Source: a phage
DNA length: 64,000 nt
Sequence record: PZ445487.1
Strand: one strand, 5' to 3'
Below the pieces are notes generated by a model. That model made no database searches, was not told the DNA's origin, and was given only the letters and a program-made list of their open reading frames with translations. Positions 21,864 to 61,994 of the stretch are shown piece by piece (the first letter of the stretch is position 1; every line of letters starts with the position of its first letter). The translations under genes were made by a program, and so were the position numbers.

Positions 21864-21898
21864 GATAATATCCTCACTTTATAGCGAGGATATTTATA

Positions 21899-26261: not shown

Positions 26262-26300
26262 AACAGGGGGAATTATATCCCCCTTTGGTTTATTGAATCA
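26262..26300 (-). promoter_or_regulatory. hairpin ggggg-aattatat-ccccc (sense loop GATATAAT) between DNA polymerase stop and lipoprotein start
   Basis: Third copy of the TTCAATAAA-plus-hairpin motif; the -10-like TATAAT lies in the loop. Confidence 0.35.
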
Positions 26301-32934: not shown

Positions 32935-32973
32935 AGATACCCCACACTGGTCGTATGGGGTATTTAGGATGGA

Positions 32974-40846: not shown

Positions 40847-41151
40847 GAGAGGTTCCTTGATAACGGTTGTTTGTCCAGACTATTATATTCGTACAAGTGT
40901 TATTGAATTAAAGGCCAACAAAATAGGAGCGTGATTTATTAATAGGTAAAAACTACTTTTCTACAACATCAAGAAACTGTATCTTAACGCGGTGCCCTTC
41001 GAGTTGTGAGTGTTAACGAACAACGAGAAGCAGCCTCCATGGCTGTGGAATGGGACTGCCTGTCAAGGCGGTGTTACGAGCGAGGGCGTCAGCCCCCTCG
41101 CGAGTATATTCGAATAAATTAAACGCGCGCGAGCGTTTTGATTCCCGTTGG

Positions 41152-41162
41152 CTAAATATCTT
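41152..41162 (+). promoter_or_regulatory. late-promoter-like motif CTAAATAtCtt upstream of gp6
   Basis: T4-type late promoters are TATAAATA; CTAAATA-plus-pyrimidine-run recurs upstream of late genes here. Confidence 0.45.
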
Positions 41163-41198
41163 CAACACCATATTCAAACTCAGGTGATGGAGATTATC

Positions 41199-42980
41199 AT
41201 GGCCACGCAAACAGTTCCTTCACTCGACGTCAGAGCATTTGAATACATTATTAAACAGCGAATGAAAGCTGATCCCACCTTTAAAGATTATGACTTTGAA
41301 GGTTCTGGTCTTAGTGCGATTATTCGTTTGTTGGCATCTGACGCGAACGCCATAGCCTTTATGCAAAACATGCTTAATGGTGAAGGCCATTTGAAGACAG
41401 CAAATCAACGTTCAAACGTCGGTTTATCTGCTGCATTTCTTTCCTACACGCCTGACAACTATCGGGCAGCATACATGTATGTCAACATCAAAGTTACGCC
41501 TTATGACGCCAGCACAGCCCCCAATGAGATCATCATGGATCGGCGCGTAATGTTCGTTGGGGCAAAAGACGGCAGTTCCTACAACTTTACTGTTGAGAAA
41601 CCAGTGTCGGCAACGTTGACTGCAGACGGTTATTACATGTTCAACAATGTAAAGTTGGTACAGGGGAATTGGTTGTACAAGACATATGATGTTGAAGGAA
41701 GCGCGATTTCAACATATACGATTCCTTCTGGGAATGTCGATATCAATCATATGGTCGTGCAAGTACAAGAATCAGAGTCTTCCGACGTTTCGACGACATA
41801 TCAACGTTACAACAGTCCATTTGATCTGAGCCAATATGCCTACCTGTATTTCGTAGAATTGGGTATTGATGGTCTGTATGTGTTTGAATTCGGAGATGGT
41901 TATCTTTCGCGTCGAGTAGAAGATGGGAACGTCATATTCCTTCAATACTTAGAAACTTCTGGTGCTGATGGGAATGATATTACAAGCCTGTCATCAGCGT
42001 CATCCATAGGCGGGTTTAACCAGGTCGACGTAGAATTGGTTTCCGAACGTAGCGCAGGTGGAGACGATCCGGAATCTATTGAGGACACTAAACGGTTGGC
42101 TCCTTTAGCTTATCAGGCTGATGGTGCTGCGGTTACAGAAACAGATTATGGTGTATTGACTGAAAGGTTATTCTCCAACGTCTCCCGAGCTAAATCATAT
42201 GGTGGTGACACGCTGTCTCCTCCTGATTCTGGCTATGTTTACATCGCTGTTATACCTTCTGTTGGTGAGACACTTTCGGACGCTGAGAAGGCCGATATCG
42301 TTGCTGCTCTGGACAAGTATAATGTGGGATCTATTACCCCCAAAATAGTAGACTCCGAGATCACATATATCCAAGTCTCAACGACTATATTTTGGGATCC
42401 TACTTCTACAGTCTACGTTGAAGAACAGATGAAAGTTGTTGTTGGAAACAGTATCGTTAAATGGGGTGAAAATAATCTCGGCGGATTTGACCAATTGTTT
42501 GACAAAGAAATATTGCAGGAAGCAATTACGAAAATGGAACGTTCTATCAACTCGAATATTACTTCAGTTGGTTATAAACGCCATTTCAAACCTGATTATG
42601 GAGTCTTAGACAGTTTCACATTCAGTTATGGACGAAGTATCAAACCTGGTTCTGTGAAAATAACGGGGTTCAAACCGCTTCCTGCCGAGGTGGATTTCAC
42701 TTACTACATGCGCGACAATAATGGCGATTTGAACATGTATAAAGTGAATAACAATGACACGACAAAAGAGTTTTTAGTTCAAAAAACAGGGGTTGTGGAT
42801 TATGCAAATGGGGTTGTAGACCTTCAACAGATCACGGTCTCCAACTATAACCCTGAAGGGGTGACCATAGTCGTGTTACCGGATGGACTGAACCAGAACA
42901 TACAGGCTACACAAAACCAAGTATTCAAGATTGGTGATGTGGTTGTTACGCCAGAGGTGCGCTATGTCCAAAGATCTTAA
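41199..42980 (+). CDS. 6: baseplate wedge protein (T4 gp6-like)
   Basis: 593 aa from ATG 41199 (GGAG at 6 nt); FKDYDFEGSGLSAIIRLLA...TANQRSNVGLSAAFLSYTP parallels the T4 gp6 N-terminal region. Confidence 0.8.
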   Translation: MATQTVPSLDVRAFEYIIKQRMKADPTFKDYDFEGSGLSAIIRLLASDANAIAFMQNMLNGEGHLKTANQRSNVGLSAAFLSYTPDNYRAAYMYVNIKVTPYDASTAPNEIIMDRRVMFVGAKDGSSYNFTVEKPVSATLTADGYYMFNNVKLVQGNWLYKTYDVEGSAISTYTIPSGNVDINHMVVQVQESESSDVSTTYQRYNSPFDLSQYAYLYFVELGIDGLYVFEFGDGYLSRRVEDGNVIFLQYLETSGADGNDITSLSSASSIGGFNQVDVELVSERSAGGDDPESIEDTKRLAPLAYQADGAAVTETDYGVLTERLFSNVSRAKSYGGDTLSPPDSGYVYIAVIPSVGETLSDAEKADIVAALDKYNVGSITPKIVDSEITYIQVSTTIFWDPTSTVYVEEQMKVVVGNSIVKWGENNLGGFDQLFDKEILQEAITKMERSINSNITSVGYKRHFKPDYGVLDSFTFSYGRSIKPGSVKITGFKPLPAEVDFTYYMRDNNGDLNMYKVNNNDTTKEFLVQKTGVVDYANGVVDLQQITVSNYNPEGVTIVVLPDGLNQNIQATQNQVFKIGDVVVTPEVRYVQRS

Positions 42981-43820: not shown

Positions 43821-45011
43821 ATGGCCGATTTCCTGAGTCAATATACAGGTCAGCAGATAGATCAGATATTGGGTTCTGTTGACGACAAAGTAAGTAAAAA
43901 CGACGTCATTGATGATTTTGAAGTCAGCGACTCATTGTTTCCACCGTCTGCTCGCCTGACATACGAGTTGAAAAGATCTGTTGACACAATCAATGATACT
44001 CTGGCCAACAAAGTTATTCGGACAGATAGTGGTGAACAAACAATCAATGGCAAAAAGACTTTCAATGCGTTGTTGGTGACCAATGGGGGCATACAAGTCC
44101 CTGCTGGAAAATCCGTTTCAATCACAGATGAACCAACGAACTCGACAGATGGTGTTAACCTGAGCATGTTGAGAAAGCATGGCGTCAGTGAAGACACAAC
44201 CCCGCCCGGTTCTGGTTTAGCTGGGGAGTTGTTGACATCCGGATATTACAAATTCAATTTGGATTTCACCAGATTGTCTGCGTATACCGGACCAACGTTG
44301 CCGACTTCAGTTCCAGTACAAACAGATTCTGGAGCGCATTATTGGACAATGACTGCATTTTTTGATGCGTTGTTTGCAGATAACCGATTTAATGGATATG
44401 TGACAACGACAGCGTATGATGCAGATATGCTGAGTTTAGAGTCCCAGATTAATAACATCAACACGTCGTTGAACGGGAAAGTCAACACCTCGACTTACAA
44501 CACTAAGATGGCGTCATTGGATTTGAGTATCTCCAATATCAATACGTCTCTGGGTAATAAAGTCGAGGTTAGCACGTACAACACGAAGATGACATCTCTG
44601 GATAACAGCATCAGTTCTCTTTCCAGTGATAAAGTTAGTGTATCAACGTATAATGCCAAGATGACCTCTATCGACAATAGTTTGGGGAACGCCGTTTATC
44701 GTACCAAAACGAATTTGTCGTCATACACGGTTTCGGCTTCTGGAACGACGGCTCTTCCAGATTTTGATTTGGTGAACCTTTGTCAAATACTGGTAACTGC
44801 GCAATGGGGGACAGGTAACGTTGTTGACACATATCGAGTAACCATAACTCGTGACGGAACGATCAAAACAGAGTTGTTGGTTCAGAAAAGTACGAGCGGT
44901 ACAGTGACGTTCACAGGGGCTGTGGTGGGTGGTAAATTGAGAATTTCCGTTGTTAATGCAAACACGACAACTGCTTGTTCTGTCGACTATTCTATTGCAG
45001 CTTCTTTCTAA
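43821..45011 (+). CDS. tail fibre protein with tandem 21-aa repeats
   Basis: AAGGAG RBS; repeats NINTSLNGKVNTSTYNTKMASLD / NINTSLGNKVEVSTYNTKMTSLD / KVSVSTYNAKMTSID. Confidence 0.7.
   Translation: MADFLSQYTGQQIDQILGSVDDKVSKNDVIDDFEVSDSLFPPSARLTYELKRSVDTINDTLANKVIRTDSGEQTINGKKTFNALLVTNGGIQVPAGKSVSITDEPTNSTDGVNLSMLRKHGVSEDTTPPGSGLAGELLTSGYYKFNLDFTRLSAYTGPTLPTSVPVQTDSGAHYWTMTAFFDALFADNRFNGYVTTTAYDADMLSLESQINNINTSLNGKVNTSTYNTKMASLDLSISNINTSLGNKVEVSTYNTKMTSLDNSISSLSSDKVSVSTYNAKMTSIDNSLGNAVYRTKTNLSSYTVSASGTTALPDFDLVNLCQILVTAQWGTGNVVDTYRVTITRDGTIKTELLVQKSTSGTVTFTGAVVGGKLRISVVNANTTTACSVDYSIAASF
44451..44690 (+). repeat. three tandem copies of an approximately 63-nt (21-codon) repeat inside the tail fibre gene
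   Basis: Seen directly in nucleotide and protein sequence. Confidence 0.6.
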
Positions 45012-45013
45012 AA

Positions 45014-45053
45014 CTAAATACCCCTAGATGACATGAATACATTTAGGGGTATT
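45014..45053 (+). promoter_or_regulatory. late promoter motif CTAAATACCCC overlapping a 9-bp hairpin (atacccctA...Taggggtat) upstream of TSP4
   Basis: Same architecture upstream of TSP3 and TSP2. Confidence 0.5.
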
Positions 45054-45057
45054 ACAA

Positions 45058-48000
45058 ATGGCCAACAAACCAACACAGCCTCTTTTCCCTTTGGGTTTAG
45101 AAACTTCTGAGTCTTCGAACATAAAAGGCTTCAACAACTCCGGCACTATTGAGCATTCCCCTGGTGCCGTAATGACATTTCCTGAAGATACTGAAGTTAC
45201 AGGTCTTCCATCTTCTGTGCGTTACAATCCTGATAGTGATGAATTTGAAGGTTATTACGAAAACGGTGGTTGGTTGTCTTTGGGGGGTGGTGGAATACGC
45301 TGGGAAACGCTCCCTCACGCTCCCTCTAGCAATTTGTTAGAAGGTCGTGGATATCTCATTAATAATACCACAGGGACATCTACAGTGGTTCTCCCTTCCC
45401 CTACGCGTATTGGGGATTCCGTTACTATTTGTGATGCTTATGGGAAATTTGCCACTTACCCATTGACCGTGTCTCCTTCTGGAAATAATTTGTATGGCTC
45501 CACTGAAGACATGGCTATAACAACTGATAACGTATCAGCAACGTTCACTTGGTCTGGACCTGAACAAGGTTGGGTTATTACATCCGGCGTCGGTCTTGGT
45601 CAAGGCCGTGTCTACAGTCGTGAAATCTTTACACAAATTTTGGCGTCTGAAACAAGTGCTGTCACTCTCAATACTCCACCAACAATTGTGGACGTGTATG
45701 CTGACGGAAAACGTCTTGCGGAATCCAAATATTCATTAGATGGGAATGTAATCACTTTCAGTCCTTCTTTGCCAGCCAGCACTGAATTGCAGGTAATAGA
45801 ATATACTCCTATTCAATTGGGTAATGGCGGTGGTTCTGGTTCTTCTACGATTACCTGGGTCTATAATGGGGGTTCAGCGATTGGCGGTGAAACCGAAATC
45901 ACGTTAGACATCGTTGTTGATGATGTTCCGGCCATTGATATAAACGGAAGTCGCCAGTATAAAAATCTGGGGTTCACATTCGATCCATTAACCAGTAAAA
46001 TCACTCTTGCGCAAGAACTGGATGCAGAGGATGAAGTTGTTGTAATTATCAATGGAACGCCAAACATCTATAATCAAATTGATTATACTTTGCGGGAAGT
46101 GGCTCGCGTAACCAATGTTAAAGATACAGAGGTCATTTATTTTAGTGTTGGTGCTGTGTTAAGCGGGTATAAAGTTATCTATGATAAAGTAACACAGAGA
46201 TCATATTTTATTCCAGAGCTACCGACTGGAACCACGGCAGTCAGCCTTAGTTCTTCGGCTATACTTGTGCATTCTGCTGGTAGTGTTGATCTGGGCGCAT
46301 TAGCTGTATCTCGTGAAGAATATGTTACATTGTCTGGGACATTTGATTCTGGTGCTGTCATCAATACTAAAAATGAATTACTCACCCATACTGATGGAAA
46401 GTATCGTTGGGATGGTACACTTCCTAAAACTGTAGCTGCTGGCTCAACTCCAGCAACAACTGGAGGTGTTGGTTCGGGAGCGTGGTTGAGTGTTGGTGAT
46501 GCATCTCTGAAAAGTAATTTAAATAAACCAAATGGCTTATCTTATATAGGAACCGTATCATCAGTTTCTGAATTATCATCAATAGCAGGATTAATTGGTG
46601 ATTCTATAATTCTTGATTCGTATGTTGACGGGTTTAATCTTGGTGGCGGTGTTATGGTGGCTGTTAACTCAGATACTGTGGTGGATAATATCGTTACTTT
46701 CCAAGGCAATGGTGTCGTTTGGAAAAGGAAATTATTCAACGGTGTGGCGGATGTGTACGAAGCTGGTTATACTGGAACCGGAGATTTGGCTATATTCATC
46801 AATAAAATAAATGCCGTCGGATTTGACTGTATAGTCCCTGTTTCTGGTGAGATAACAACACCGATTATTTTTGATATAGCAAAAGGTGCACTTATTGGAA
46901 AAAATAAATGTACTCTAATAGAATCTGCATCTGCAACGGGCGACTACTATCTAACCATCGTTAATACAGACACGGATTACACCAATAGAGATGTAATTAA
47001 CGCAACTGCGTTAATGACTGGAGTGTCATTTGTTGGAAAAGGGACCAGGAAATTGGCGATCGGTGGTTCTACCAGTGGAGAAGTCTCAGAGTTAAGAATA
47101 TCTAATTGCGGGTTTATCTCAACTGCTGGAATTGAGTTTCTTGATAATGCATATCGTATTCTTTTTGATAAATGTGCGTTGTCCAGAAGTTTTACAAATT
47201 CTGTTATTTTCAATTCACCAGCGAATTCCGGTGAAGTTATAAAATTTAATCATTGTTGGATGGTTGACAACGGTGGACCTTTTACATTCAAGAATGGACA
47301 ATTTATATTCGATAGCTGCTCTCTACCAGCAGGTAAAAAATCAGGATATTTTGACCCTGTTGTTGCGTTATCAGATAACGCAACAACAGTTTTCACAAAT
47401 GGCAACATTGAGTACCAACCTGGTCAGAGTTTCGTTGGGTTTACTGTAGATGGTAGTTCACGATTAAGCATCAGTGATTCGACAATACTGTTGCCGAATG
47501 ATTATTCTACAGTACCTATTGTAAACAACGGGGATGGGGTTGTTAGTCTAAATAATTGCTCGTTACCTCTCTATGGAAGCACAACGATTGCTACTGGGTT
47601 TGCCACACGGCAGTTGATAGGTGGGTTGAGTAAAAAAATAATGTCCAGAGGTTGCTATCCACGAGCAGGGTTTATAACAAGTAACTGGAATTTAGGGTGC
47701 ATTGTAAGCCCTTATATTAATAGTGTTAGTAATGGCTCAGGGCAGTTTGAAAATATATCTAACTGGACACTCTCACAAACTGGAACAGACGTTGTCACTG
47801 TTACTACAGGAAACGATGTTCCTAACGATTTAATGTTTTCAACTTCTTTTGTCTTATCCGTACCAACAGTGGGTGCAGCGGCTAATTTCACCCAGACAAT
47901 CATTGACTGTGAGCCTGGGCGTTATTTTCAACTTGGGTTTTGGGCTAAAAATACAACAACCACCCTGGCATCAATTAGATTCCTGGACCAGCAAGGAAAT

Positions 48001-48168
48001 GCTGTCGCGGATTCCATAGGATATAACATCCCAGTAGGAAACACGTTCAACTTTTATGCTTTGGTGGATTGCGTTCCGCCAGGAGCTTACAAAGCTGAAA
48101 TTAATTTCAATGTTTCCTCTATTGTTGGTGGTATCGCAATACACAATGTCATTTACGGATTGATATGA
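45058..48168 (+). CDS. tailspike protein TSP4-like (1036 aa)
   Basis: Size equals the 1036 aa I recall for CBA120 TSP4; long N-terminal extension plus shared module (VKDTEVIYF...AVSREEYVTL...GKYRWDG) and beta-helix-like C-terminus. Confidence 0.8.
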   Translation: MANKPTQPLFPLGLETSESSNIKGFNNSGTIEHSPGAVMTFPEDTEVTGLPSSVRYNPDSDEFEGYYENGGWLSLGGGGIRWETLPHAPSSNLLEGRGYLINNTTGTSTVVLPSPTRIGDSVTICDAYGKFATYPLTVSPSGNNLYGSTEDMAITTDNVSATFTWSGPEQGWVITSGVGLGQGRVYSREIFTQILASETSAVTLNTPPTIVDVYADGKRLAESKYSLDGNVITFSPSLPASTELQVIEYTPIQLGNGGGSGSSTITWVYNGGSAIGGETEITLDIVVDDVPAIDINGSRQYKNLGFTFDPLTSKITLAQELDAEDEVVVIINGTPNIYNQIDYTLREVARVTNVKDTEVIYFSVGAVLSGYKVIYDKVTQRSYFIPELPTGTTAVSLSSSAILVHSAGSVDLGALAVSREEYVTLSGTFDSGAVINTKNELLTHTDGKYRWDGTLPKTVAAGSTPATTGGVGSGAWLSVGDASLKSNLNKPNGLSYIGTVSSVSELSSIAGLIGDSIILDSYVDGFNLGGGVMVAVNSDTVVDNIVTFQGNGVVWKRKLFNGVADVYEAGYTGTGDLAIFINKINAVGFDCIVPVSGEITTPIIFDIAKGALIGKNKCTLIESASATGDYYLTIVNTDTDYTNRDVINATALMTGVSFVGKGTRKLAIGGSTSGEVSELRISNCGFISTAGIEFLDNAYRILFDKCALSRSFTNSVIFNSPANSGEVIKFNHCWMVDNGGPFTFKNGQFIFDSCSLPAGKKSGYFDPVVALSDNATTVFTNGNIEYQPGQSFVGFTVDGSSRLSISDSTILLPNDYSTVPIVNNGDGVVSLNNCSLPLYGSTTIATGFATRQLIGGLSKKIMSRGCYPRAGFITSNWNLGCIVSPYINSVSNGSGQFENISNWTLSQTGTDVVTVTTGNDVPNDLMFSTSFVLSVPTVGAAANFTQTIIDCEPGRYFQLGFWAKNTTTTLASIRFLDQQGNAVADSIGYNIPVGNTFNFYALVDCVPPGAYKAEINFNVSSIVGGIAIHNVIYGLI

Positions 48169-48179
48169 TTAACAACCAT

Positions 48180-48207
48180 CCCCCGCTTTTGGCGGGGGTC
48201 TTATTAT
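48180..48207 (+). terminator. rho-independent terminator (cccccgc-tttt-gcggggg plus T-rich)
   Basis: Directly after the TSP4 stop. Confidence 0.6.
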
Positions 48208-48264
48208 AAATTTTATTGGTTCTCAGACTAAATACCCCATATTGGTCATCCTTTATGGGGTATT
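48208..48264 (+). promoter_or_regulatory. 57-nt conserved element: late promoter CTAAATACCCC (48228..48238) plus hairpin ataccccat/atggggtat
   Basis: Nearly identical to 50202..50258. Confidence 0.5.
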
Positions 48265-48267
48265 AAC

Positions 48268-50151
48268 ATGATTTCTCAATTCAATCAACCACGCGGCTCC
48301 ACTTCCATAGAAGTTAACAAACAATCTATCGCTCGAAATTTCGGTGTCAAAGAAGACGAAGTCATTTATTTCACTGCTGGTATTGATCTCAGTGGATTTA
48401 AAGTAATTTATGATGAGTCTACCCAACGGGCTTATTCTCTCCCTTTCGGTATTGTTTCAGGGACAACTGCAATTAGTCTGGATGAAAGAGCTATCCTCAC
48501 TCATTCCGCTGGCTCTGTTGACCTTGGGGAATTAGCAGTAAGCCGCGAAGAATATGTGACTTTACCTGGTTCTTTTAATTTCGGCCATACCATTAATGTG
48601 AAAAATGAACTTCTTGTTCACGATGATAAAAAATATCGATGGGATGGTTCTTTGCCAAAGGTAGTTGCCGCTGGTTCTACTCCAGATAGTTCAGGTGGTG
48701 TTGGTTTAGGTGCATGGTTGAGTGTTGGTGACGCGGCATTGAGGGCTGAGTTAAATACAAAGGTCTCAGATGGAACCTTCCCTGCAACTATAAAATATAA
48801 ATATGGGTTGCCATCTGTTATTGATGGTGCTATATACAGAACTGTACAAGATAAGCTGGATGATTTTGTTTTTCTGGAAGACTTTGGAGGCAAGGATGAT
48901 GCTGGTAGTACCGACAATAGCATAGCGTTTCGGAAGGCTTTTGCTTCTGGTGCAAGAAAAATTAGGCTGCGTGGTTCTGGTGTTTATGGTATGGCGACCA
49001 GAGATATTGAGCTTCCAGCAAAATATGAAATTATCGGCAATGCAAAAAATCCAGAAATCAAATATTTAGGCACAGATACATCATTCACTATGTTCACCCT
49101 CACTGGTAGTGGGCCTGCTTCTAACCAGTGGAAACAGGGTGGCATGTTCCGTGATTTAATCATTTCTTCTGATGTGAAGATCAACTGGATGCTAGGCCGA
49201 CATGTACAGAACTTGGATTATGATCGTGTATTCTTCTACAACTCAGCTACTGTGCTGAACAACTATCACTATGTGAACTTTACTCGATGCGAGCGTTGGG
49301 GTAGTGCCTTCATTGGTCGTGCTGATTTGAACACAATACAGTTCATTAGTGAGTCACCTAAGTTCCACTTGTGCTTTAGCTCTGGTTCACCAATTGATGT
49401 GTGGGACACAGCAGACTTGGCAATCACCAAGTGTACTATGTTCGCAGGTGATTATGCAGTTCGTACCCGTGTAACACAGAAACAGGTAACAGCACCAGAC
49501 TTGTTCGCAGGATACCCTGTGCTCATCACGTGTAGTGTGTTCGATGCGGTACGTGGCCATGCTTGGGATTTGGAGGGTTCGGTCTACTCTACCATCACTG
49601 GCAACCTTGTGAGTGCTGGACGTGATACAAACAGTCACGGTGCATACATCAAGGGCGGGCGTAGTTTGTCACTTACTGGCAATGTGTTCACTTACTGTGG
49701 TAACTATGGATTGGTCCTCGAAGATGTACAGCAGTCTGGTTTCGTTGGTAATGTCTTCAACGGTAATAAGACAGGCGGTCTAGGAACCCTCGCCTGCAAA
49801 GACCTCAGCATTGTTGGTGGTAGTATGGGTACAACCTATGTACGTGGTGGGTACTACACTCAGCCTGTAGGTTATTCTGATATATCAAGTAACTCAACTG
49901 GCATTTTACTTAGTGGTGTTGCTTTCGATGAAGCCTTAACTACTAAGGTCTACTTGGACACTAGCATCACTACAAGGAACAAAGTTATTAACTGCTCAGG
50001 TGTTCCTGATACAATAGCTCGTGGTAGTACAGCCAATAGACCTGCCAATCCACAGGCAAGTTATCAATATTATGATACTACTTTAGGCATTCCTATCTGG
50101 TGGAACTCAGTTAGCGGCACATGGAAAAACGCGGCTGGAGCTGATGTTTGA
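48268..50151 (+). CDS. tailspike protein TSP3-like (627 aa)
   Basis: Size equals the 627 aa I recall for CBA120 TSP3; shared N-terminal module; beta-helix-like C-terminus. Confidence 0.8.
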   Translation: MISQFNQPRGSTSIEVNKQSIARNFGVKEDEVIYFTAGIDLSGFKVIYDESTQRAYSLPFGIVSGTTAISLDERAILTHSAGSVDLGELAVSREEYVTLPGSFNFGHTINVKNELLVHDDKKYRWDGSLPKVVAAGSTPDSSGGVGLGAWLSVGDAALRAELNTKVSDGTFPATIKYKYGLPSVIDGAIYRTVQDKLDDFVFLEDFGGKDDAGSTDNSIAFRKAFASGARKIRLRGSGVYGMATRDIELPAKYEIIGNAKNPEIKYLGTDTSFTMFTLTGSGPASNQWKQGGMFRDLIISSDVKINWMLGRHVQNLDYDRVFFYNSATVLNNYHYVNFTRCERWGSAFIGRADLNTIQFISESPKFHLCFSSGSPIDVWDTADLAITKCTMFAGDYAVRTRVTQKQVTAPDLFAGYPVLITCSVFDAVRGHAWDLEGSVYSTITGNLVSAGRDTNSHGAYIKGGRSLSLTGNVFTYCGNYGLVLEDVQQSGFVGNVFNGNKTGGLGTLACKDLSIVGGSMGTTYVRGGYYTQPVGYSDISSNSTGILLSGVAFDEALTTKVYLDTSITTRNKVINCSGVPDTIARGSTANRPANPQASYQYYDTTLGIPIWWNSVSGTWKNAAGADV

Positions 50152-50162
50152 TTGTGATTAAT

Positions 50163-50190
50163 AACTCCGCTTCAGCGGGGTTATTATTAT
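50163..50190 (+). terminator. terminator-like hairpin (ctccgc-ttca-gcgggg) plus TTATTATTAT
   Basis: Directly after the TSP3 stop. Confidence 0.5.
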
Positions 50191-50201
50191 GCCTTTGTTC
50201 A

Positions 50202-50258
50202 TAAATTTTATTAGTTCAGACTAAATACCCCATATTGGCAAATCCTTTATGGGGTATT
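50202..50258 (+). promoter_or_regulatory. 57-nt conserved element: late promoter CTAAATACCCC (50221..50231) plus hairpin
   Basis: Paralogue of 48208..48264. Confidence 0.5.
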
Positions 50259-50263
50259 TTCAA

Positions 50264-53029
50264 ATGACTAGAAATGTAGAAGAATTATTCGGCGGTGTAA
50301 TCACAGCTCCCCACCAGATTCCTTTCACGTATAAATCAAATGTCGGTGGAGAAACTTTCCTTTCCTTGCCGTTCTATCCTGTCACTGGCGTAGTCACAAT
50401 CAACGGTGGTATGCAAGTTCCGTTAGACAACTTTGAAATCGAAGGAAATACATTGAATCTCGGACGCGCATTGTCCAAAGGCGATGTTGTGTATTGCTTA
50501 TTCGATAAAATTCTTTCGCCAGAAGATACAGCCAAAGGTATCCGCATATACAAATTTCAGGCCGTAGGAGGTGAAACCGAGTTCACTCCTGATTTCACAT
50601 CTTATGGAGTCCAATCTCTTTATATCGGTGGCGAGTACAAAACACCCGAAATTGAATATTCCTATGACAGCACGACAGGAAAAGTATCTTTGCAAACTGC
50701 ACTGTCTGCAGGCGTTTGGGTAGTCGCTGAAATGTCTGTTAAACAACCGAATATCAGTCCGGCGTTTGACCGAAGTATTCAAGAAATCGCCCGTTCTGCT
50801 AATGTGAAAGACTCTGAAGTCATCGTTAGTACGGACACCATATCTTTGTTGGATGGGAAGAAAGTTGTTTATGATATAGCGACGCAAACCAGTTATGGTT
50901 TACCAACCATTCCTGATGGTTCTGTCATTTCTTCTGTATCTGCTGGGAAATTGAATTACAACCCAGGTGATGTGCAGGTTGATTTGTTGCCTTTAGAAGA
51001 TTCATTTATTAACGTGATAAACACTCTGGGGCGCAATGATGGTGCCAAGTATATTGGAGAATGCCATTCTGTTGCTGATCTCAGGAATACTGAACCCACT
51101 ATGGATGGACAACGCATTATTCTTAAGCAACACACTGCGGGTACTCTTCTTGGTGGAGGGGTATTCCGTGCGTTAATTGATGGTACAGGAAAGACTGATA
51201 ATAACGGTACTGTGATCAAAACTGTTGGCGGCGCAGCATGGTTACGTGTTAATGCTGATAGAGTTAACCCATTCATGTTTGGTGCTTTGGGTGGTTCTAA
51301 TGATGATACTATTCCAGTACAATCTTGTGTGGATAGTGGTAAGGCCACACAATTAACTGATGCACATTACGTTAGCAATATCCAGTTAAAATATAATACG
51401 TCGTCTATTTATGGGTCTGGATTACATTACTCAAGGTTGCATCAGTTGCCTTCTGCTACTGGGAATTGTATTACCATAAAAGATACATGCTCCCTTATTG
51501 TATTAGACGCCTTTGGGGTATATGGCACAGGTGCACAACAAGGCACGTCATTTACTGCGGGTACAACAGGTATCTATGTAGAAACTCCTTCAGGTCTCTC
51601 AGCCGATTATCCGTTCCACACTACCGCAGACCCAAGACGCGACTTGTGTATTTCTAAAGTCCATATAGCAGGTTTTGATGAATATGGGTTAAATATTGAT
51701 AGTGGTAACTTTAGTGTTACTACAGATTCTCTTTTAGTCAACCACATCAATCAGGTGGGTGTCCGTTGTGCTACTACTGATTGGACTTGGACAAATATCC
51801 AGGTTAATACCTGCGGTAAACAATGTCTAGTTCTTGATGGTTGTGGTAATGGTCGTATTATTGGCGGTAAATTCATTTGGGCTAACTGGCAACCTTATGG
51901 TACAGTAGGACAGTTTCCAGGCATTACTATTAATAACAGCCAGAATATGGTTATTAATGGTATTGAGGTACAAGATTGTGGCGGGAATGGTATTGAGATT
52001 AGCGAGTCATATTCAATTTCCATGAACGGATTGAACACCAATCGTAACGGCATCAATGCTAACAACACTTTCTACAACATCGTATTTAACAAAAGTGATG
52101 CAGTTATCAACGGATTCGTAGGACTCAATTATGCCGCGAATAGTGGTTCAGGTGCTAACTCTAGTGCAGGCAATTTTCAGTTCCTGTCTAATGATTGTAG
52201 TGTCACCATTAATGGTGTGGTTGAGACTGGTTATATGGGCATTAACTTTATTGGTGATAACAATATTATCAACCCCACCAATTCCGACCTGAGCATTAAC
52301 GGATTGGTTAATTATTCCAAGACTGGTTTGCAAACCATGAACGAGACCCCTACATTTGATGGTGTTAGCACTACACCTGTTTATGTAAGTGTCCCATCTT
52401 CTGTGGGGCAAGTAAATGGTCTGAGACTATCACAAGCCAACAAAGATAAATTACTGTACTCAAGAACAGCAGGTCCAGAAGGTATTACCATGGCTGCTGT
52501 TATAGTACCTACCATATCTGGAGCTGAAGTATTTAACTTCATGGCCATTGGTTCAGGGTTTAGTGATACATCCAACAGTCTTCATCTTCAATTAGTTATA
52601 GACGCTTCTGGAAAACAAACAATTGCTTTGCTATTGGGGGGCGATGGTACAACCCAAATTTTATCTGGGGATTTACCTAACGACCTTAAACTACAAAGTG
52701 GTGTGCCATATCATATAGCTATTGGTGCTAAACCTGGATATTTCTGGTGGAGTATTCTTAATATTCAGACGGGTAAGAGAATCAGACGGTCATTCCGAGG
52801 CGCTTATTTAGCCGTACCATTTAATTCTATATTCGGATTAACTTCCTCATTAACATTCTTCTCGGATAGCAATGCTGGTGGGGATGCTTGTTCTGGGGTG
52901 GGCGCTAAAGTGTATGTTGGTATGTTCTCTTCTGAGAACGATTATGTAGCTTCACGATACTACAACCTGATTAATCCTGTAGACCCTACTAAGTTAATTA
53001 GTTACCGTATATTGGATTCTTCTATTTAA
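50264..53029 (+). CDS. tailspike protein TSP2-like (921 aa)
   Basis: Start at the second ATG (50264, MTRNVEELFGG) gives 921 aa, matching the size I recall for CBA120 TSP2; ORF-track start 50249 lies inside the promoter hairpin. Confidence 0.8.
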   Translation: MTRNVEELFGGVITAPHQIPFTYKSNVGGETFLSLPFYPVTGVVTINGGMQVPLDNFEIEGNTLNLGRALSKGDVVYCLFDKILSPEDTAKGIRIYKFQAVGGETEFTPDFTSYGVQSLYIGGEYKTPEIEYSYDSTTGKVSLQTALSAGVWVVAEMSVKQPNISPAFDRSIQEIARSANVKDSEVIVSTDTISLLDGKKVVYDIATQTSYGLPTIPDGSVISSVSAGKLNYNPGDVQVDLLPLEDSFINVINTLGRNDGAKYIGECHSVADLRNTEPTMDGQRIILKQHTAGTLLGGGVFRALIDGTGKTDNNGTVIKTVGGAAWLRVNADRVNPFMFGALGGSNDDTIPVQSCVDSGKATQLTDAHYVSNIQLKYNTSSIYGSGLHYSRLHQLPSATGNCITIKDTCSLIVLDAFGVYGTGAQQGTSFTAGTTGIYVETPSGLSADYPFHTTADPRRDLCISKVHIAGFDEYGLNIDSGNFSVTTDSLLVNHINQVGVRCATTDWTWTNIQVNTCGKQCLVLDGCGNGRIIGGKFIWANWQPYGTVGQFPGITINNSQNMVINGIEVQDCGGNGIEISESYSISMNGLNTNRNGINANNTFYNIVFNKSDAVINGFVGLNYAANSGSGANSSAGNFQFLSNDCSVTINGVVETGYMGINFIGDNNIINPTNSDLSINGLVNYSKTGLQTMNETPTFDGVSTTPVYVSVPSSVGQVNGLRLSQANKDKLLYSRTAGPEGITMAAVIVPTISGAEVFNFMAIGSGFSDTSNSLHLQLVIDASGKQTIALLLGGDGTTQILSGDLPNDLKLQSGVPYHIAIGAKPGYFWWSILNIQTGKRIRRSFRGAYLAVPFNSIFGLTSSLTFFSDSNAGGDACSGVGAKVYVGMFSSENDYVASRYYNLINPVDPTKLISYRILDSSI

Positions 53030-53036
53030 AAAATAT

Positions 53037-53062
53037 ACCCCTCTTCGGAGGGGTCTTTACTA
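53037..53062 (+). terminator. rho-independent terminator (acccctc-ttcg-gaggggt plus T-rich)
   Basis: Directly after the TSP2 stop. Confidence 0.55.
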
Positions 53063-53081
53063 GAAAAACAATGAGGTACTT

Positions 53082-55394
53082 ATGAACGAAATGTTTAGTC
53101 AAGGTGGTAAAGGTTCAACTGGAATCTTAACCAATAAACAAGCAGTAGCCAGACACTTTGGAGTTAAACAATCTGAGGTTGTTTATTTCTCAGTTGGTGT
53201 AGATTTAGGTGGGTATAAAGTTATCTATGACAAGGAAACGCAAAGAGCTTATTCCTTACCTGTTGGTATTGCTTCTGGTACTACTGCCGTCAGTCTTAGT
53301 ACTGCTGCTGTACTTGTACATTCAGCAGGTTCTGTAGACTTAGGTTCATTAGCTGTATCTAGGGAAGAATATGTAACTTTACCTGGTTCATTTGATTCTG
53401 GTTCTACGCTTAATGTTAAAAATGAATTACTTACTTATACGGATGGTAAGTATCGCTGGGATGGGATACTACCTAAAACTGTAGCTCCTGGTTCAACTCC
53501 TGCATCAACTGGCGGCGTTGGTTTAGGCGCGTGGATTAGTGTTGGTGATGCTTCTTTGAGAACACAACTGGCAAACGGCGATGGCTCGTTGATTGGAATT
53601 CATCCACAGGGAACGCTAAATAATGTATTAACTGTACGCACACCTGAACAGTACAATGCGGTAGGCGACGGAATAGCTGACGACACTTCAAAATTAAAAG
53701 AAATGCTTTCAGATATAAACAACGTTCCTGAAACACTTCCTGATGCTGCGGCTGTAAACTCATACATGGAGCAAGTAGCAGTAAAAATTGACCTGACCAA
53801 GTTATACCGTTTCACGGAGACGCTATACATACCACCAGGTGTTTCAATTGAAATACCAACATCAAACTTTTTTACTCGTGAGTGTAAGCAAGGATTGTTT
53901 TATGACCCAGTAGATAAGAATACAGCAGCAATTAGCTTAATGGTGTACCGTAAACAGCCAGATGGTTCATACAAACTCAATAAAGATGTAGATTATTATC
54001 CTACTGGGTTAGATATTGATAATGGGGATGCTATAACATGTGCCAGAAAAATTGATATTAATAACCTTAACCTGATTACAGCACCGGGTGTAAAGGTCGG
54101 TGTTAAATGGATAGGTGGGGCAGGTTGCACTACAAAAGGGTTATCCATTGGGGAGAATACAGGGAGCGATATTACAACAGCAAGACTGCCAAGAGTAGGA
54201 TTATTGCAGTCAGCATCATGGGGTTCTATTCATGAAAATCTACGTATCCTGTATAAAACTCAGGGCGCAGTGTTCATTGACTCTAATGGCGGGGCTGCTG
54301 TAAACAATGCTTACATTTCTCGCCTTGGTAATACTAATGGTGAGTTGGAACAAGCGGTGTATAAACCAGCAGGGTTTACTGAGGTAGGTGATGTTGCCGT
54401 CACTCAGTTTGCAGGTTCAGAGGTTAAGTTTAATAGCCCAATCATCGAACAAGCATCCTTCGACTTTGTTCACGCTGGTCGGGATACTGATTCCTATGGT
54501 TTATTTATGGTTGATAAACCCCATATTGAGTCATCTGGCGGGAAGAAAAAACATAGCTTCTATCTTATCAATACCAGTTCGAATGTTACGTTGTCAGGAG
54601 TAGGTCTTTCAGGACAAGACCCTGATTTGGATAGCATGTACTTCCTTAAAAACTGTCCAGAAACTGCCAGAAATGTTGTTAGAGGACAAATGCCAATAAG
54701 TGGCGTAAAACTCGTTAGGGGTACTGGTAATTACCCCACATTGGTACTCGACTGTACAAATATGGGAAGTCAATTCCAATTTGGAGAAGTTGGTGACATT
54801 TTCTATATCAAAGATGTTGTTGGTGTAAAAGCAGATACTCTTTATATAGACCCAGTGAATGGTAATAATTATAACTGGGGGACCAATGGGACTAAACCTA
54901 TACGGGAATTAACTAATATTGCAAAGATATGCCAGCTTTTTAGATGTAAAAGTGTTTATCTTAATGCTGGAGAATCAGTTATTACATCTAACACAGAATT
55001 GCCTATGGTGGTGTTTGAAGGTCCTGGAAGCTTAAAAGCAAATTCTGGTAGTAGTTTCCTTATTAAAGCAGGTGGCACATTATCACTAATTGGCCTTTCT
55101 GGAATATCTACAGATGGTGGTCATATGTTCAGGGTGTCCACAGTAGAGAAGGTAAATATACACACAAACTGTTCAGTTAATGCTGGTGCGGCTTATGTTG
55201 TTCTAAGTGAGGTTCAAGGTAATATTGAATACAGGCAATTATTTTATTCAGTAAACTGTTCTAAGTATATTGGTGCAACTGCTGGACAAACTATCGCTGG
55301 TATTATGGTTAAGACTGCAACAAGACCGACAGGAATCGATGCTGCTCCAGTTGATGGTAATGTTTCTCTAACCTATAAAATTATAGAATCATAA
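53082..55394 (+). CDS. tailspike protein TSP1-like (770 aa)
   Basis: Size equals the 770 aa I recall for CBA120 TSP1; shared N-terminal module (VKQSEVVYF...AVSREEYVTL...GKYRWDG). Confidence 0.8.
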   Translation: MNEMFSQGGKGSTGILTNKQAVARHFGVKQSEVVYFSVGVDLGGYKVIYDKETQRAYSLPVGIASGTTAVSLSTAAVLVHSAGSVDLGSLAVSREEYVTLPGSFDSGSTLNVKNELLTYTDGKYRWDGILPKTVAPGSTPASTGGVGLGAWISVGDASLRTQLANGDGSLIGIHPQGTLNNVLTVRTPEQYNAVGDGIADDTSKLKEMLSDINNVPETLPDAAAVNSYMEQVAVKIDLTKLYRFTETLYIPPGVSIEIPTSNFFTRECKQGLFYDPVDKNTAAISLMVYRKQPDGSYKLNKDVDYYPTGLDIDNGDAITCARKIDINNLNLITAPGVKVGVKWIGGAGCTTKGLSIGENTGSDITTARLPRVGLLQSASWGSIHENLRILYKTQGAVFIDSNGGAAVNNAYISRLGNTNGELEQAVYKPAGFTEVGDVAVTQFAGSEVKFNSPIIEQASFDFVHAGRDTDSYGLFMVDKPHIESSGGKKKHSFYLINTSSNVTLSGVGLSGQDPDLDSMYFLKNCPETARNVVRGQMPISGVKLVRGTGNYPTLVLDCTNMGSQFQFGEVGDIFYIKDVVGVKADTLYIDPVNGNNYNWGTNGTKPIRELTNIAKICQLFRCKSVYLNAGESVITSNTELPMVVFEGPGSLKANSGSSFLIKAGGTLSLIGLSGISTDGGHMFRVSTVEKVNIHTNCSVNAGAAYVVLSEVQGNIEYRQLFYSVNCSKYIGATAGQTIAGIMVKTATRPTGIDAAPVDGNVSLTYKIIES

Positions 55395-58400: not shown

Positions 58401-60327
58401 TGCTGGTGGTGTGTGGTGGGGATATCGTTACCGCACGACTGTTTCTGCCCGTGATGTCACCACATATACATACACGGACAAAACAACCACGACCATGACT
58501 GGTGAACAGATTGTGGAGACGCAAGTTATCCCATACATGCGCGAGATCGATATTTCTTTCGACGCATCTGGGCTGCGACCTTTCACTCGTATGTATGCGT
58601 TCTTCTCTGGTCGTGACGTCAATCTGTATTGCAAACCGAATGGCGGTAATTTCGGAGACCCAATCACCACTGATGCCAATGGTGCTGTTAAGGGTGTATT
58701 CCGCGTTCCACAGAACGATACAATCAAGTTCAACACAGGCGACAACGTGTTCCGCTTAACGGATAGCCCTGTTGACAGTAAATCTGCGGATGATACACTG
58801 ACCAATGCAGAAATTGTTCATAAATCTTTCGGTAAGAAACAAGGTATTCAAAAGACCTTTGTCAACACTCGTGTCCTGGGTTACACTGCCAGTACTCGCA
58901 CCGAAACCAGCACTTCTGAAGTTGTGGTCGACCAATGGCGTGATCCGATTGCCCAATCGTTTATGGTGGCGACTAAGAATGGCGGCGAGTATATCGAAGG
59001 CGTGGAAGTATTCTTCTCTACCAAGTCACGTGATGTTCCGATCACTCTGGAAATTCGAGAGATGGAGAATGGCTTACCTTCTCACACAGTCATTACTCGT
59101 AAGACTTTGAACCCATCTGAAGTGACGATCTCTACAGACTCTTCCGGCGGTACGAAGTTCACCTTTGATTATCCGGTGTATCTGCAAGCATCTACTGAGT
59201 TTGCTATCGTTTTGTTGGCGAATACCCAGGATTACAACGCGTATATCGCGGAAATGGGCAAGAAAAACCTTCTGTCCAACGAATATATCGCCAAACAACC
59301 GTATACAGGGGTGTTCTTCACTTCTTCAAACGGTTCTACATGGTCTCCAAACCAAATGGCTGATATGAAATTCCGCATATATCGTTGTAACTTCGCTGCG
59401 GGGCAGAACGTTGTAACATTTGATCCGAAGCTCGGGCCAAAACAACGTCCGTTGGGATTGAATACTCTGAACTGCGTAAGCGGGTCTTCTGTTGTGACTG
59501 TGTTTGCACCTGGTCATGGTTTGGTTGCTGGGAACAATGTCACTCTTTCTGAATTGACAGGCGGTTGTGGCTTTACTCCTGAACAACTTAACAAAACGTT
59601 TACTGTGACAGATGCGAGCTATACTTCATTCAAGATTGACGTCGGTACGGCAGCAGACAGCAATGGACAAATCGGTGGAGATAATGCTTCTTTCTTGGGC
59701 AATTATCTGGTTGATATGTTCTATGCCAGCGTTACCAATTCGGCTCTGGAAGGTTCAATTCTGAAATTGGAATACCGTTATCGCGATGCCACTTCAAATT
59801 CTATGTCTGATTGGGCTGAGTTTGAAACTGACACTGACGTGGCATTGCCGACTGAAGGTATCTATCGTCAGGTCGGGGATTTCCAAATCCGAGCCACCAT
59901 GACGCGTAGTGAAAACAACGTGTACACTGCTCCAATGATTGATGGCGATGACCTGAGCGTAATCTTCAACTCATACGGTGTGGATCCATTTGAAGATGTC
60001 TTCAAATACGTGACAAAGGACATCGGATTTGATAATCCGTGTTCTACTGTGAAGTTGTTCTTTGGTGCAATGCTCCCATCTCAGTCTTCGATGAAGGTGC
60101 AGGTGAAACTTCTACGAGCAGGGCAAGAGATGGATAGTGTGGCTTGGGAAGACGTCACCCCAACTTCGCCTCTGGTTAACGACGGTTCCACATTCTTTGA
60201 ATATGAGTATGACAAGACTGTGGCGAGCAATAACCCGTTTGTTGGCCTGAAAGTCCGAGCGCTTGTACGGGGGAACCGCGTTGCTCCTCCTTCATTTAAA
60301 GACTTCCGTCTTATTGCTCTGGCATAA
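55489..60327 (+). CDS. large virion structural protein (1612 aa; putative baseplate or tail-associated)
   Basis: Single long ORF with GGAG RBS in the late structural module between tailspikes and neck genes; function inferred from position only. Confidence 0.75.
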   Translation: MQSTNLNRRPYWDDWNPGKRFSRILFRPMPIKVQTRELNQMQTILQDQIEKLGNHLFKDGSMVIPGGLTITNAAVSLKFTLAGGTEFTDLEGISELYVLGKDNNAKARVLSLERDLSAPDTMLAILEMTEAGNADGFHVNDNLYFQTYDVNDNFIRIGYGIAAAVTGSIVARMTKGVYFIRGMFLDVDDATLIVDKTSNTSSHRVGFKVTETIVTESEDESLYSNAQGTINSKAPGAHRLRIDLVLSRFDYDAVVEDFVELAKVRDGKIQSMVTQSTYNILEDTLAQRTYETNGDYNVSTHQIDIREHLKVNNNGGVFNAADGGDESKFVSVMKPGISYVRGRRIENVGEELVIVDKARDTDVLNNTPVAVATGNYLVTKNSKGVPVISRTVRYKLLNASGVTQATALCISAERNSTEFRLYMRDLVVTGDASTITKVSYEESGITMFSAELESNQFNQSSMIDLIFSLPVFGVKTLAPTGSVDINYTVLRTYKVTLDNSGAGSISAPLGYSFSPEFSLYSAAKSDGSEAQFDISGSLSLTGSPVGSALQISLGSGNANQSINLLALMIRTTATIKTKTITETTETVTFTSQTSRPLANHDGWKLVSVKNDTGADVTSSFVLDGGQRDAGYYKSNLLSSAGAISGTYTVVYQYFAHSSGDFFSADSYTSMDYKDIPNYTSSTSGAVYGLADSLDFRPKITNGTSDTDMVRPNTAVILDTEYYLPRIDAIYLADNGVFGVARGISSNNLASPAIPANAMRLYELLIPPYTPNIDDIQIRTIDNRRYTMRDIGKLETRISNVEYYTSLSQLESSAMTQQVFDPITGNPRFKNGIAADPFKDFRLIDDLSEDWMGSIDTENGRLRPFVQQNVVDMTPVGWNKVMDGMVVCNYTPEISVNQEYATTTINVNPYAVFNWEGFLKINPTTDYWFENYYVAPRIINETINTRGTVQEGSVYGTWRTVSVSDRVWEPHGAGGVWWGYRYRTTVSARDVTTYTYTDKTTTTMTGEQIVETQVIPYMREIDISFDASGLRPFTRMYAFFSGRDVNLYCKPNGGNFGDPITTDANGAVKGVFRVPQNDTIKFNTGDNVFRLTDSPVDSKSADDTLTNAEIVHKSFGKKQGIQKTFVNTRVLGYTASTRTETSTSEVVVDQWRDPIAQSFMVATKNGGEYIEGVEVFFSTKSRDVPITLEIREMENGLPSHTVITRKTLNPSEVTISTDSSGGTKFTFDYPVYLQASTEFAIVLLANTQDYNAYIAEMGKKNLLSNEYIAKQPYTGVFFTSSNGSTWSPNQMADMKFRIYRCNFAAGQNVVTFDPKLGPKQRPLGLNTLNCVSGSSVVTVFAPGHGLVAGNNVTLSELTGGCGFTPEQLNKTFTVTDASYTSFKIDVGTAADSNGQIGGDNASFLGNYLVDMFYASVTNSALEGSILKLEYRYRDATSNSMSDWAEFETDTDVALPTEGIYRQVGDFQIRATMTRSENNVYTAPMIDGDDLSVIFNSYGVDPFEDVFKYVTKDIGFDNPCSTVKLFFGAMLPSQSSMKVQVKLLRAGQEMDSVAWEDVTPTSPLVNDGSTFFEYEYDKTVASNNPFVGLKVRALVRGNRVAPPSFKDFRLIALA

Positions 60328-61964: not shown

Positions 61965-61975
61965 CTAAATACCTT
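61965..61975 (+). promoter_or_regulatory. late-promoter-like motif CTAAATACCtt upstream of gp14
   Basis: Motif family as above. Confidence 0.4.
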
Positions 61976-61994
61976 CAAAATTGAGGGTAAAGTC

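Follow-up and report, generated by a model that had tools for sequence, protein, structure and literature searches.

In a 64,000-nt stretch of phage DNA (sequence record PZ445487.1; hereafter, the window), the tailspike genes TSP3 and TSP2 are each preceded by a nearly identical 57-nt element, at 48208-48264 and 50202-50258, in which a late-promoter motif forms one arm of a hairpin and the other arm reaches almost to the start codon. What such a promoter-hairpin is for is the question that this locus raises. A preliminary description of the window had proposed either regulation by structure, in the DNA or in the RNA's 5' untranslated region (5'-UTR), or a recombination site marking module boundaries. 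The region from 44800 to 50400 is 100% identical, on the reverse strand, to Escherichia phage CBA120 (Kuttervirus, Ackermannviridae; NC_016570 / JN593240), and the elements were analyzed in the context of that genome and its relatives. We consider it likely that the elements are composite expression signals like that known from the lysozyme gene e of phage T4 and gate the translation of the genes behind them.

The near-identity of the two copies held up, with 53 of 60 alignment columns identical (88%) and an exact core of 23 nt, TCAGACTAAATACCCCATATTGG, common to both; the likeness ends at the start codon, and the coding sequences and protein N-termini are unrelated. The related element noted upstream of TSP4 (45014-45053) was found as described. 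A search for the element across the genome, the check set in the preliminary description, added a fourth copy of CTAAATACCCC, upstream of orf229 on the minus strand. This sequence occurs exactly four times in the window, at 45014(+), 48228(+), 50221(+), and 32957-32967(-), which is also its count in the whole genome; the expectation is 0.65 (allowing up to one mismatch), and none of 100 shuffles reached four. At 4/4 sites GGGGTAT stands shortly ahead of a start codon, its distance from the start of the box being 24 to 33 nt, and since this heptamer is expected only about five times in the window, both strands together, such regular partnership is far beyond chance.

The two motifs belong to opposite arms of one hairpin. 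In all four elements the 5' arm begins inside the TAAATA box, within its final bases, and runs through CCCC, and the 3' arm (...GGGGUAU(U)) ends 3 to 7 nt before the AUG, with (C)TAAATA itself 33 to 37 nt ahead of the ATG. The stems proved longer than the 9 bp first proposed: 11 bp for TSP3, 12 bp for TSP2, and 14 bp, with one G.U, for TSP4. Likewise, the 3' arm had been described as abutting the start codon; it does lie near the ATG, but what it contains is the Shine-Dalgarno (SD) sequence GGGGU, 7 to 8 nt before it. As read from the sequence, GGGGU can pair with the anti-SD of the 16S rRNA using one wobble, and the hairpin is predicted to sequester the ribosome-binding site. Folded at full length, the leaders of TSP3, TSP2, TSP4, and orf229 reached -21.3, -20.7, -19.1, and -18.7 kcal/mol (z of -3.96, -4.90, -5.39, and -5.39, respectively), and none of 200 shuffles folded as well as any of these. 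RNA beginning at the predicted late start had no significant structure (TSP3, -5.0 kcal/mol, z 0.00; TSP2, -4.5, z -0.22; TSP4, -3.2, z -0.06).

The position of that start follows from what is known of T4, whose late promoters consist of an 8-bp box, TATAAATA, at -13 to -6 and an AT-rich melted segment after it (PMC2988020). If this geometry applies, late transcription would start at about 48240, 50233, and 45026, past the CCCC run. Because the late start would then fall inside the 5' arm, only transcripts coming from upstream could fold the hairpin. Moreover, because T4 late promoters are AT-rich downstream of the box, a GC-rich run such as CCCC is atypical there; promoter function does not account for it, whereas a role as an anti-SD sequence does.

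The mechanism that we propose would work as follows. A gp55-type late box, (C/A/T)TAAATA, would be followed immediately by an anti-SD run (CCCC, CCTC, or CCTT); the last bases of the box and this run would make up the 5' arm, and the SD with its flanking bases (GGGGUAUU, 7 to 8 nt before the AUG) the 3' arm. RNA coming in from upstream, either as read-through of the preceding gene or terminator or as a transcript of an earlier class, would carry both arms, fold at about -19 kcal/mol, and hide the ribosome-binding site, leaving the tailspike poorly translated. RNA polymerase with the phage late sigma factor would initiate about 6 nt past the box, within the 5' arm, and the resulting late transcript, without the anti-SD arm, would be freely translated. 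The predicted outcome is that TSP4, TSP3, TSP2, and at least seven other genes, the endolysin and the RuvC-like resolvase included, need their own late promoter for translation. The annotation of CBA120 includes homologues of gp55 (the late sigma factor), gp33 (gp33-like), and the gp45 clamp. Read-through past the elements is plausible; that such RNA exists, in what amount, and that the hairpin acts on translation is what we infer here.

The same device has been described for T4 e, soc, 49, I-TevI, and segB and for Aeh1 mobE (McPheeters et al. 1986; reviewed in PMC3014915, PMC2988022). In T4, the SD and/or AUG of the long early and middle transcripts lies in a helix and these RNAs are translationally silent; the late promoter sits where the 5' strand is encoded, and the late RNAs, which start inside the stem and do not have that strand, are translated well, the effect being about 100-fold for gene e (PMC3014915, PMC2988022). 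When the T4 e leader (L098; UAUAAAUACCUUCUAUAAAUACUUAGGAGGUAUUAUG) was folded in the same way, it gave the hairpin AAUACCUUCU / AGGAGGUAUU at -14.9 kcal/mol (z -3.6). The arms are near-identical in T4 e (TAAATACCTTC...GGAGGTATT-ATG), the CBA120 endolysin (TAAATACCTTCGC...GCGGAGGTATT, within the leader TTTAAATACCTTCGC-ATACATT-GCGGAGGTATTTTCTTATG), and the tailspikes (TAAATACCCC...GGGGTATT); the use of CCCC/GGGG is the sole difference between the tailspike leaders and those of the endolysin and T4 e, and the layout agrees even in the bases of the box with which the stem opens. The gene classes are parallel as well, lysozyme e corresponding to the endolysin and endonuclease VII (gene 49) to the RuvC-like Holliday-junction resolvase, which makes the analogy with T4 stronger for these two genes than for the tailspikes. 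Differences from T4 are the family (Ackermannviridae, not Straboviridae), the box, which is (C/A/T)TAAATA instead of the strict TATAAATA, and the presence of the device at about one-third of the candidate late promoters of CBA120, among them those of three consecutive tailspike genes.

That proportion comes from a scan of the CBA120 genome for TAAATA and then a start codon with an SD-like sequence within 60 nt, which gave 34 pairs. For each pair, the fold of the full leader was compared with the fold from the predicted late start (the difference being ddG), with 300 shuffles of the 5' arm as a control. The values were bimodal, with ddG of -11 to -17 kcal/mol in 11/34 pairs and near zero in the remaining ones. 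In 10 of these 11 members the observed ddG was unmatched by any of the shuffles, and for the other, orf165, p was 0.01. Between 5 and 12 bases of the SD region pair with the 5' arm in every member (8 to 12 nucleotides in the tailspike-type elements), and a co-directional gene lies directly upstream of 10/11. The members are TSP4, TSP3, TSP2, orf229, orf249, orf203, and orf217, the last being the gp6 baseplate gene and the first of the tail cluster, together with orf171, orf165 (helicase), orf102 (endolysin), and orf087 (RuvC-like resolvase) outside the window. Their coordinates, and those of the genes and terminators discussed below, are given in Table 1.

Table 1. Tailspike genes, promoter-hairpin elements, and associated features (window coordinates unless another record is named; SD, Shine-Dalgarno sequence)
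Feature	Position	Strand	Details
TSP4 (orf213)	45058-48168	+	
TSP3 (orf212)	48268-50151	+	
TSP2 (orf211)	50264-53029	+	Annotated (RefSeq) start
TSP1 (orf210)	53082-55394	+	
TSP4 element	45014..45053	+	Box CTAAATA 45014-45020; hairpin 45017-45030 / 45040-45053; SD GGGGT 45046-45050; ATG 45058
Intrinsic terminator after TSP4	48180..48198	+	CCCCCGCTTTTGGCGGGGG, then T-rich tail; flagged by terminator scan
AT-rich spacer AAATTTTATTGGTTCTCAGA, upstream half of 57-nt repeat	48208..48227	+	Resembles 50203-50220
Late-promoter box, TSP3	48228..48234	+	CTAAATA; predicted late start ~48239-48241
TSP3 hairpin	48231..48264	+	5' arm 48231-48241 AATACCCCATA, 3' arm 48254-48264 TATGGGGTATT; inner GG/CC pair 48244-45 / 48250-51; SD GGGGT 48257-48261 in 3' arm; ATG 48268
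Terminator-like hairpin after TSP3	50165..50180	+	CTCCGCTTCAGCGGGG, then TTATTATTAT; read from sequence
Late-promoter box, TSP2	50221..50227	+	CTAAATA; predicted late start ~50232-50234
TSP2 hairpin	50223..50259	+	5' arm 50223-50234, 3' arm 50248-50259; SD GGGGT 50251-50255 in 3' arm; annotated ATG 50264
orf229 element (fourth CTAAATACCCC)	32937..32967	-	Box 32967-32961; hairpin 32963-32953 / 32947-32937, 11 bp; ATG 32934
orf203 (neck/head-closure) element	61965..61989	+	CTAAATA 61965-61971; hairpin 61970-61977 / 61982-61989; SD GAGGG; ATG 61995; ddG -13.2, p<1/300
orf249 element	21867..21898	-	Perfect T4 box TATAAATA 21898-21891; hairpin 21894-21883 / 21878-21867; SD GAGGA; ATG 21863; ddG -14.3, p<1/300
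orf217 element (weaker member)	41152..41201	+	CTAAATA 41152-41158; SD GGAG pairs with sequence just after box; ddG -11.2, p<1/300
orf102 (endolysin) element	55339-55380 of CBA120 record NC_016570		Outside the window
orf087 (RuvC-like resolvase) element	44215-44260 of CBA120 record NC_016570		Outside the window

Could the complementarity be a coincidence without function, CCCC being merely part of the late-promoter consensus and GGGG merely an SD? The literature quotes CTAAATAcCcc as a unitary regulatory motif (PMC7283392), and one relative (L093) has CTAAATACCCC without a downstream partner. CTAAATA is indeed overrepresented in the window (15 occurrences vs 7.6 expected) and located upstream of many structural genes; however, most CTAAATA late boxes lack CCCC, and many, for example, those of orf209 and of the tail sheath and scaffold genes, have no hairpin either. 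The CBA120 genome holds 25 copies of CTAAATA and only 4 of the CCCC anti-SD arm, each partnered by GGGGTAT. The complementarity reaches 11 to 14 bp, beyond CCCC/GGGG, and differs between paralogues, and coincidence is further contradicted by z-scores of -4 to -5.4 and by the compensatory changes and covariation described next. We give this explanation practically no chance.

With the TSP2 N-terminus, orf215, endolysin, resolvase, orf171, and orf229 serving as anchors, orthologous loci were taken from IMG/VR, both from Kuttervirus and from at least three groups farther removed (51 to 86% protein identity); L016-L034 and L038-L059 are the endolysin/resolvase loci. Stems were compared by per-sequence folds and an arms-only alignment; MAFFT mis-registered the resolvase arms, which differ in loop length and by an inserted base pair. 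Among the fetched loci, GGGG[CT]AT follows 19 to 33 nt after the T of TAAATA in 37/39 distinct TAAATACCCC contexts. The clearest changes were seen in the resolvase leader, with three independent compensatory events spread across genera: AAC/GUU to AUC/GAU (A:U to U:A), CCCAUAAC/GUUAUGGG to CCCGUAAC/GUUACGGG (A:U to G:C), and the gain of one G:C pair by insertion (AUAGCCC/GGGCUAU). This stem is two pairs longer in Limestone-like phages (G-UAAAUA/UAUUUA-C). At the endolysin the SD arm is fixed, changes in the 5' arm are wobble-compatible so that the stem holds, and the loop varies; the orf229 orthologues also combine a variable loop with a constant stem. In the TSP4-type elements the distal stem pairs differ between genera (AUG/CAU to AC/GU, G.U to G:C) and the proximal stem is invariant, and in the TSP2/3 type the whole stem is invariant across genera and the apical loop alone changes (UCAU, CAAAU, UAACG, CGAU).

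The arms-only alignment comprised 18 distinct elements, paralogues and orthologues together. With a register taken from each sequence's minimum-energy fold, which biases the counts toward pairing, 94.4% of cells pair, compared with 77% in shuffles; double-sided changes were found in 36 cells vs 8.8, and the covariation score was 0.49 vs 0.13 (0/500 shuffles in each case; <=0.16 for slid registers). The structure thus appears, from these comparisons of sequence, to be maintained by selection across the class. The stems contain nine G.U cells, where the opposite strand would have A.C mismatches. Because these wobbles pair on the sense strand only, a sense-strand RNA is favored over a DNA cruciform. 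The idea of regulation by structure is supported, then, in the more specific form of SD masking on read-through RNA; structure at the DNA level is disfavored by the sense-only wobbles. In the 5'-UTR of the promoter's own transcript, by T4 geometry, the hairpin is not expected.

The same data bear on control by a protein or at the DNA level, in which the element would be an operator, bound, for example, by the RegA-like protein of orf160 or by a late-transcription factor, or an inverted repeat modulating promoter opening as DNA. The invariance of the TSP2/3-type stem and of the proximal TSP4 stem exceeds what pairing needs, a gene for a RegA-like translational repressor (orf160) is annotated in CBA120, and the fold of the single-stranded DNA, weaker at -10 to -11 kcal/mol, is also significant. 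However, independent constraints on both arms (box plus start region on one, SD on the other) explain the invariance, paralogous elements differ in sequence yet keep their pairing, and the A.C mismatches on the other strand argue against a cruciform. Loops of 12 to 14 nt also disfavor cruciform extrusion. We regard this kind of control as highly unlikely to be the function of the element.

Several points weigh against translational gating of the T4 type, besides the bias in the arms-only counts. The invariant TSP2/3-type stem yields no covariation of its own, and conservation this strong could also be due to binding by a protein. The literature searched yielded neither mapped transcription starts nor transcriptomes of Kuttervirus or other Ackermannviridae, and the position of the late start rests on analogy with T4. 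Terminators precede TSP3 and TSP2 and should limit read-through. Furthermore, the genes upstream in the tailspike cluster, back to orf217, all appear late; in the plus direction ahead of orf217 the sole promoter-like signal seen is the late box, and in the divergent region upstream of that gene the early-type motif TTCAAT-N14-TATAAT is on the opposite strand only. Because these upstream genes look late, gating of early versus late expression is not obviously needed at the tailspikes.

The T4 logic, a block on earlier or longer transcripts, would by analogy apply directly to the endolysin and the resolvase and probably to orf249 too. In contrast to the early/late timing of T4, the tailspikes form an all-late cluster with terminators ahead of TSP3 and TSP2, and the rationale there is probably uncoupling: the most likely role of the element is to tie the translation of each gene to its own promoter, independently of read-through from its neighbor. 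This is the least certain part of our explanation. Such uncoupling could help to keep the four tailspikes, which come together in a single branched complex, in balance.

The terminators themselves lead to another possibility, that the hairpin is a terminator, attenuator, or 3'-end stabilizer for upstream transcripts and its overlap with promoter and SD is secondary. The terminator after TSP4 is conserved as AAAAACCCCGCTTYGGCGGGGTTCTTATTAT in most Kuttervirus loci; the hairpin after TSP3 was not flagged by the terminator scan, and relatives have a canonical terminator at the homologous position. TSP3 and TSP2 already have separate terminators about 30 nt upstream of the promoter-hairpin, and at TSP4 the element begins 3 nt past the orf215 stop codon with no terminator in between. 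U-rich runs do follow the hairpin at orf171 (GGGGGTATTTTTATG), the resolvase (GGGTATTTTTATG), the endolysin (GGAGGTATTTTCTT), and TSP2 (GGGGTATTTTC). Even there, however, the first U's pair with the AAA of the box, no U tract exists at TSP3 (TATTAAC) or TSP4 (TATTACAAA), and the tailspike hairpins were not flagged by the terminator scan. A role at transcript ends would also not account for a 3' arm that in every case is the SD, at a distance from the AUG suited to ribosome binding, and we find such a role very unlikely.

The upstream half of the repeat speaks to the second proposal, that of a recombination site. The 57-nt repeat did not turn out to be the functional unit, since its upstream 20 nt are replaceable and the core from CTAAATA to GGGGTATT is kept. 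The spacer AAATTTTATTGGTTCTCAGA is found in the TSP3 and TSP2 leaders of most Kuttervirus genomes and is restricted to this genus; in L010, L013, and all other genera it is swapped for unrelated sequence and conservation starts at the box, so that it seems dispensable. In most Kuttervirus, terminator, spacer, late box, and hairpin form a cassette of ~110 nt (AAAAACCCCGCTTYGGCGGGGTTCTTATTAT-ACCTTTGTTCATAAATTTTATTAGTTCAGA-CTAAATACCCC...GGGGTATT), present as a direct repeat flanking TSP3, which in CBA120 is reduced to ~57-105 nt. Common ancestry of the two copies, or gene conversion between them, is clear. In BLAST comparisons with CBA120, the conserved TSP3 block begins at 48181, 48206, or 48228, and the conserved TSP2 block at 50155-50167 in Kuttervirus and at 50205-50221 in other genera, where in 4/6 loci it begins at the box itself (50219-50221). 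The right borders of the blocks are inside coding sequence, and the variable receptor-binding parts (~46505-48180 and ~48744-50155) lie between them. The element marks the 5' edge of each conserved block of expression signal plus N-terminal domain.

From this layout it could be argued that the unit mainly provides homology for the swap, deletion, or insertion of tailspike modules, as a late analogue of the promoter-early stem-loop (PeSL), a terminator/promoter cassette implicated in the modular shuffling of T4-like phages (Arbiol 2010, PMC2839356; Comeau 2014, PMC4122927). Besides this precedent, the direct repeat before TSP3 and TSP2, and the points at which the homology blocks begin, the CBA120 copies share loop and spacer beyond functional need, indicating duplication or gene conversion. 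Nevertheless, full copies number only two, the design is also found at 8 other, non-variable genes without apparent shuffling, and the conserved N-terminal coding blocks (~500-1500 bp) give far more homology. The sole rearrangement detected (L011/L082) crossed in a coding repeat, and the compensatory changes indicate selection on RNA pairing. We thus hold recombination as the main function to be improbable: homology blocks do begin at or just upstream of the element, but no sign of a dedicated site was seen, and recombination is a possible secondary consequence and not the function.

The rearrangement is a chimeric TSP4-TSP3 gene in one Kuttervirus genome (L011 3701-7100, the same as L082; IMG/VR contig 2974516482). 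Its crossover lies in a coding repeat of ~400 nt common to TSP4, TSP3, and TSP1 (window 46117-46513, 48346-48745, and 53163-53562), and the event removed the cassette between the genes together with the C-terminus of TSP4 and the N-terminus of TSP3.

The comparison with PeSL is informative in itself. Both are composites of a terminator stem-loop and a promoter, repeated between genes; PeSL borders segments that vary between close relatives, as the CBA120 cassette appears to do. However, PeSL has an early sigma-70-type promoter and the CBA120 cassette a T4 late-type box; PeSL occurs in many copies in hyperplastic regions of small open reading frames (ORFs), compared with two full copies here; and PeSL has experimental support for mediating recombination. 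Unlike PeSL, the CBA120 cassette includes a hairpin that masks the SD, and the swapped segments are tailspike receptor-binding domains. Whether one portable "late" cassette both insulates tailspike expression and serves as a crossover point for the swap, gain, or loss of tailspike modules is doubtful, although we leave this idea a small chance; if true, it would link gene regulation directly to host-range evolution in Kuttervirus and its relatives.

Translational gating also gives a mechanistic reading of a motif known from the literature. CTAAATAcCcc is quoted as one of "two unique regulatory motifs" of ViI-like phages (PMC7283392), and in the literature searched it is listed without structural or translational interpretation. 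The CBA120 genome paper stated that the late-promoter sequence was not yet identified (PMC3184105), and the genome papers of AG3, LIMEstone, CBA120, SW16-7, and Vi01-like phages do not mention the hairpin. From its sequence context, the motif seems better read as a late-promoter box plus an optional anti-SD arm. It reportedly goes back to the 2012 proposal of the genus Viunalikevirus. The mechanism as such is a known one of T4, now in a family where no description of it turned up, and a specialist in T4 gene expression would not be surprised by the device; what it adds is the extension of the T4 lysozyme device to another family of gp55-encoding phages. If the reading is right, three tailspikes, the endolysin, the resolvase, and the neck protein would be translated strictly from their own late promoters, as would several proteins without a known function, among them a small membrane protein. 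For the engineering of Kuttervirus tailspikes to alter host range, expression should change when a tailspike gene is replaced without its promoter-hairpin or when an intact promoter-hairpin is left in front of a new gene.

A practical warning concerns annotation. An in-frame ATG at 50249, in the 3' arm of the TSP2 hairpin, pulls mechanical ORF calls five codons early (MGYFQ-MTR...). We ruled it out as the true TSP2 start, as it has no SD and lies inside the stem; the RefSeq start at 50264 is consistent with the SD spacing. An N4-type DNA-hairpin promoter was also considered and rejected: no virion RNA polymerase signal was seen here, and a gp55-type system is in use.

Among the other members of the class, orf249 (window 21696-21898, minus strand) codes for a protein of 55 aa that belongs to PHROG 3879 (unknown function) and has a hydrophobic helix at its N-terminus and a coiled tail that is charged; the PHROG search returned no function for either orf249 or orf229. 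The CBA120 genome paper reports that no holin was identified (PMC3184105), and because of this we regard orf249, with the features seen in its sequence, as a candidate lysis-timing or holin-like gene. The fourth tailspike gene, TSP1, has neither a late box nor an SD-masking hairpin of its own (window 53030-53084). Before it stands a terminator-like hairpin, ATACCCCTCTTCGGAGGGGT (53035-53054), that opens with ATACCCC like the promoter arms; the SD behind it, GAGGT, is free. The TSP2 transcript may serve for the expression of TSP1.

Outside the family, a collection-wide scan for TAAATACCCC-N4-30-GGGGTAT gave matches of which, among those listed, about two-thirds had no nearby start codon, and which are no measure of taxonomic spread. 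The TAAATACCCC...GGGGTAT design was seen before a T4-like lysozyme gene (MNIFE...) in L146 (IMG/VR contig 2706795401, T-even-sized at 170.8 kb; minus strand, pattern from 6193 of the reversed locus) and before an ORF of 267 to 271 aa in many aquatic T4-like contigs (TATAAATACCCCTAGG..CTAGGGGTATTTTTTATG). Besides L146, loci with the design are L105, L148, L155, L161, L170, L184, L196, and L211. The device appears to be widespread among phages with T4-type late boxes.

An Rfam scan of 44800-50400 (E<=1) gave nothing beyond a chance miRNA match, and a sigma-70 promoter scan gave 34 hits against a shuffle expectation of 31.6, that is, no enrichment, which says nothing on the upstream half of the repeat. 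The other conserved motif of ViI-like phages, TTCAAT-N14-TATAAT (a putative early promoter), occurs exactly at window 26272-26297 (-) and 40882-40907 (-), and with up to two mismatches at 26 sites vs 11.5 expected. As a whole, the window equals the CBA120 GenBank record reverse-complemented and circularly permuted: its positions 1-16997 are record 16997-1, and its positions 16998-64000 are record 157304-110302 (junction at window 16997/16998). Finally, upstream of orf108 and outside the window (CBA120 record ~58650-58690, minus strand), a terminator-like hairpin, CCCCCTAAATACAGGGGGATTTTCTTTTT, has a CTAAATA box in its loop, a different way for a late box and a structure to overlap.

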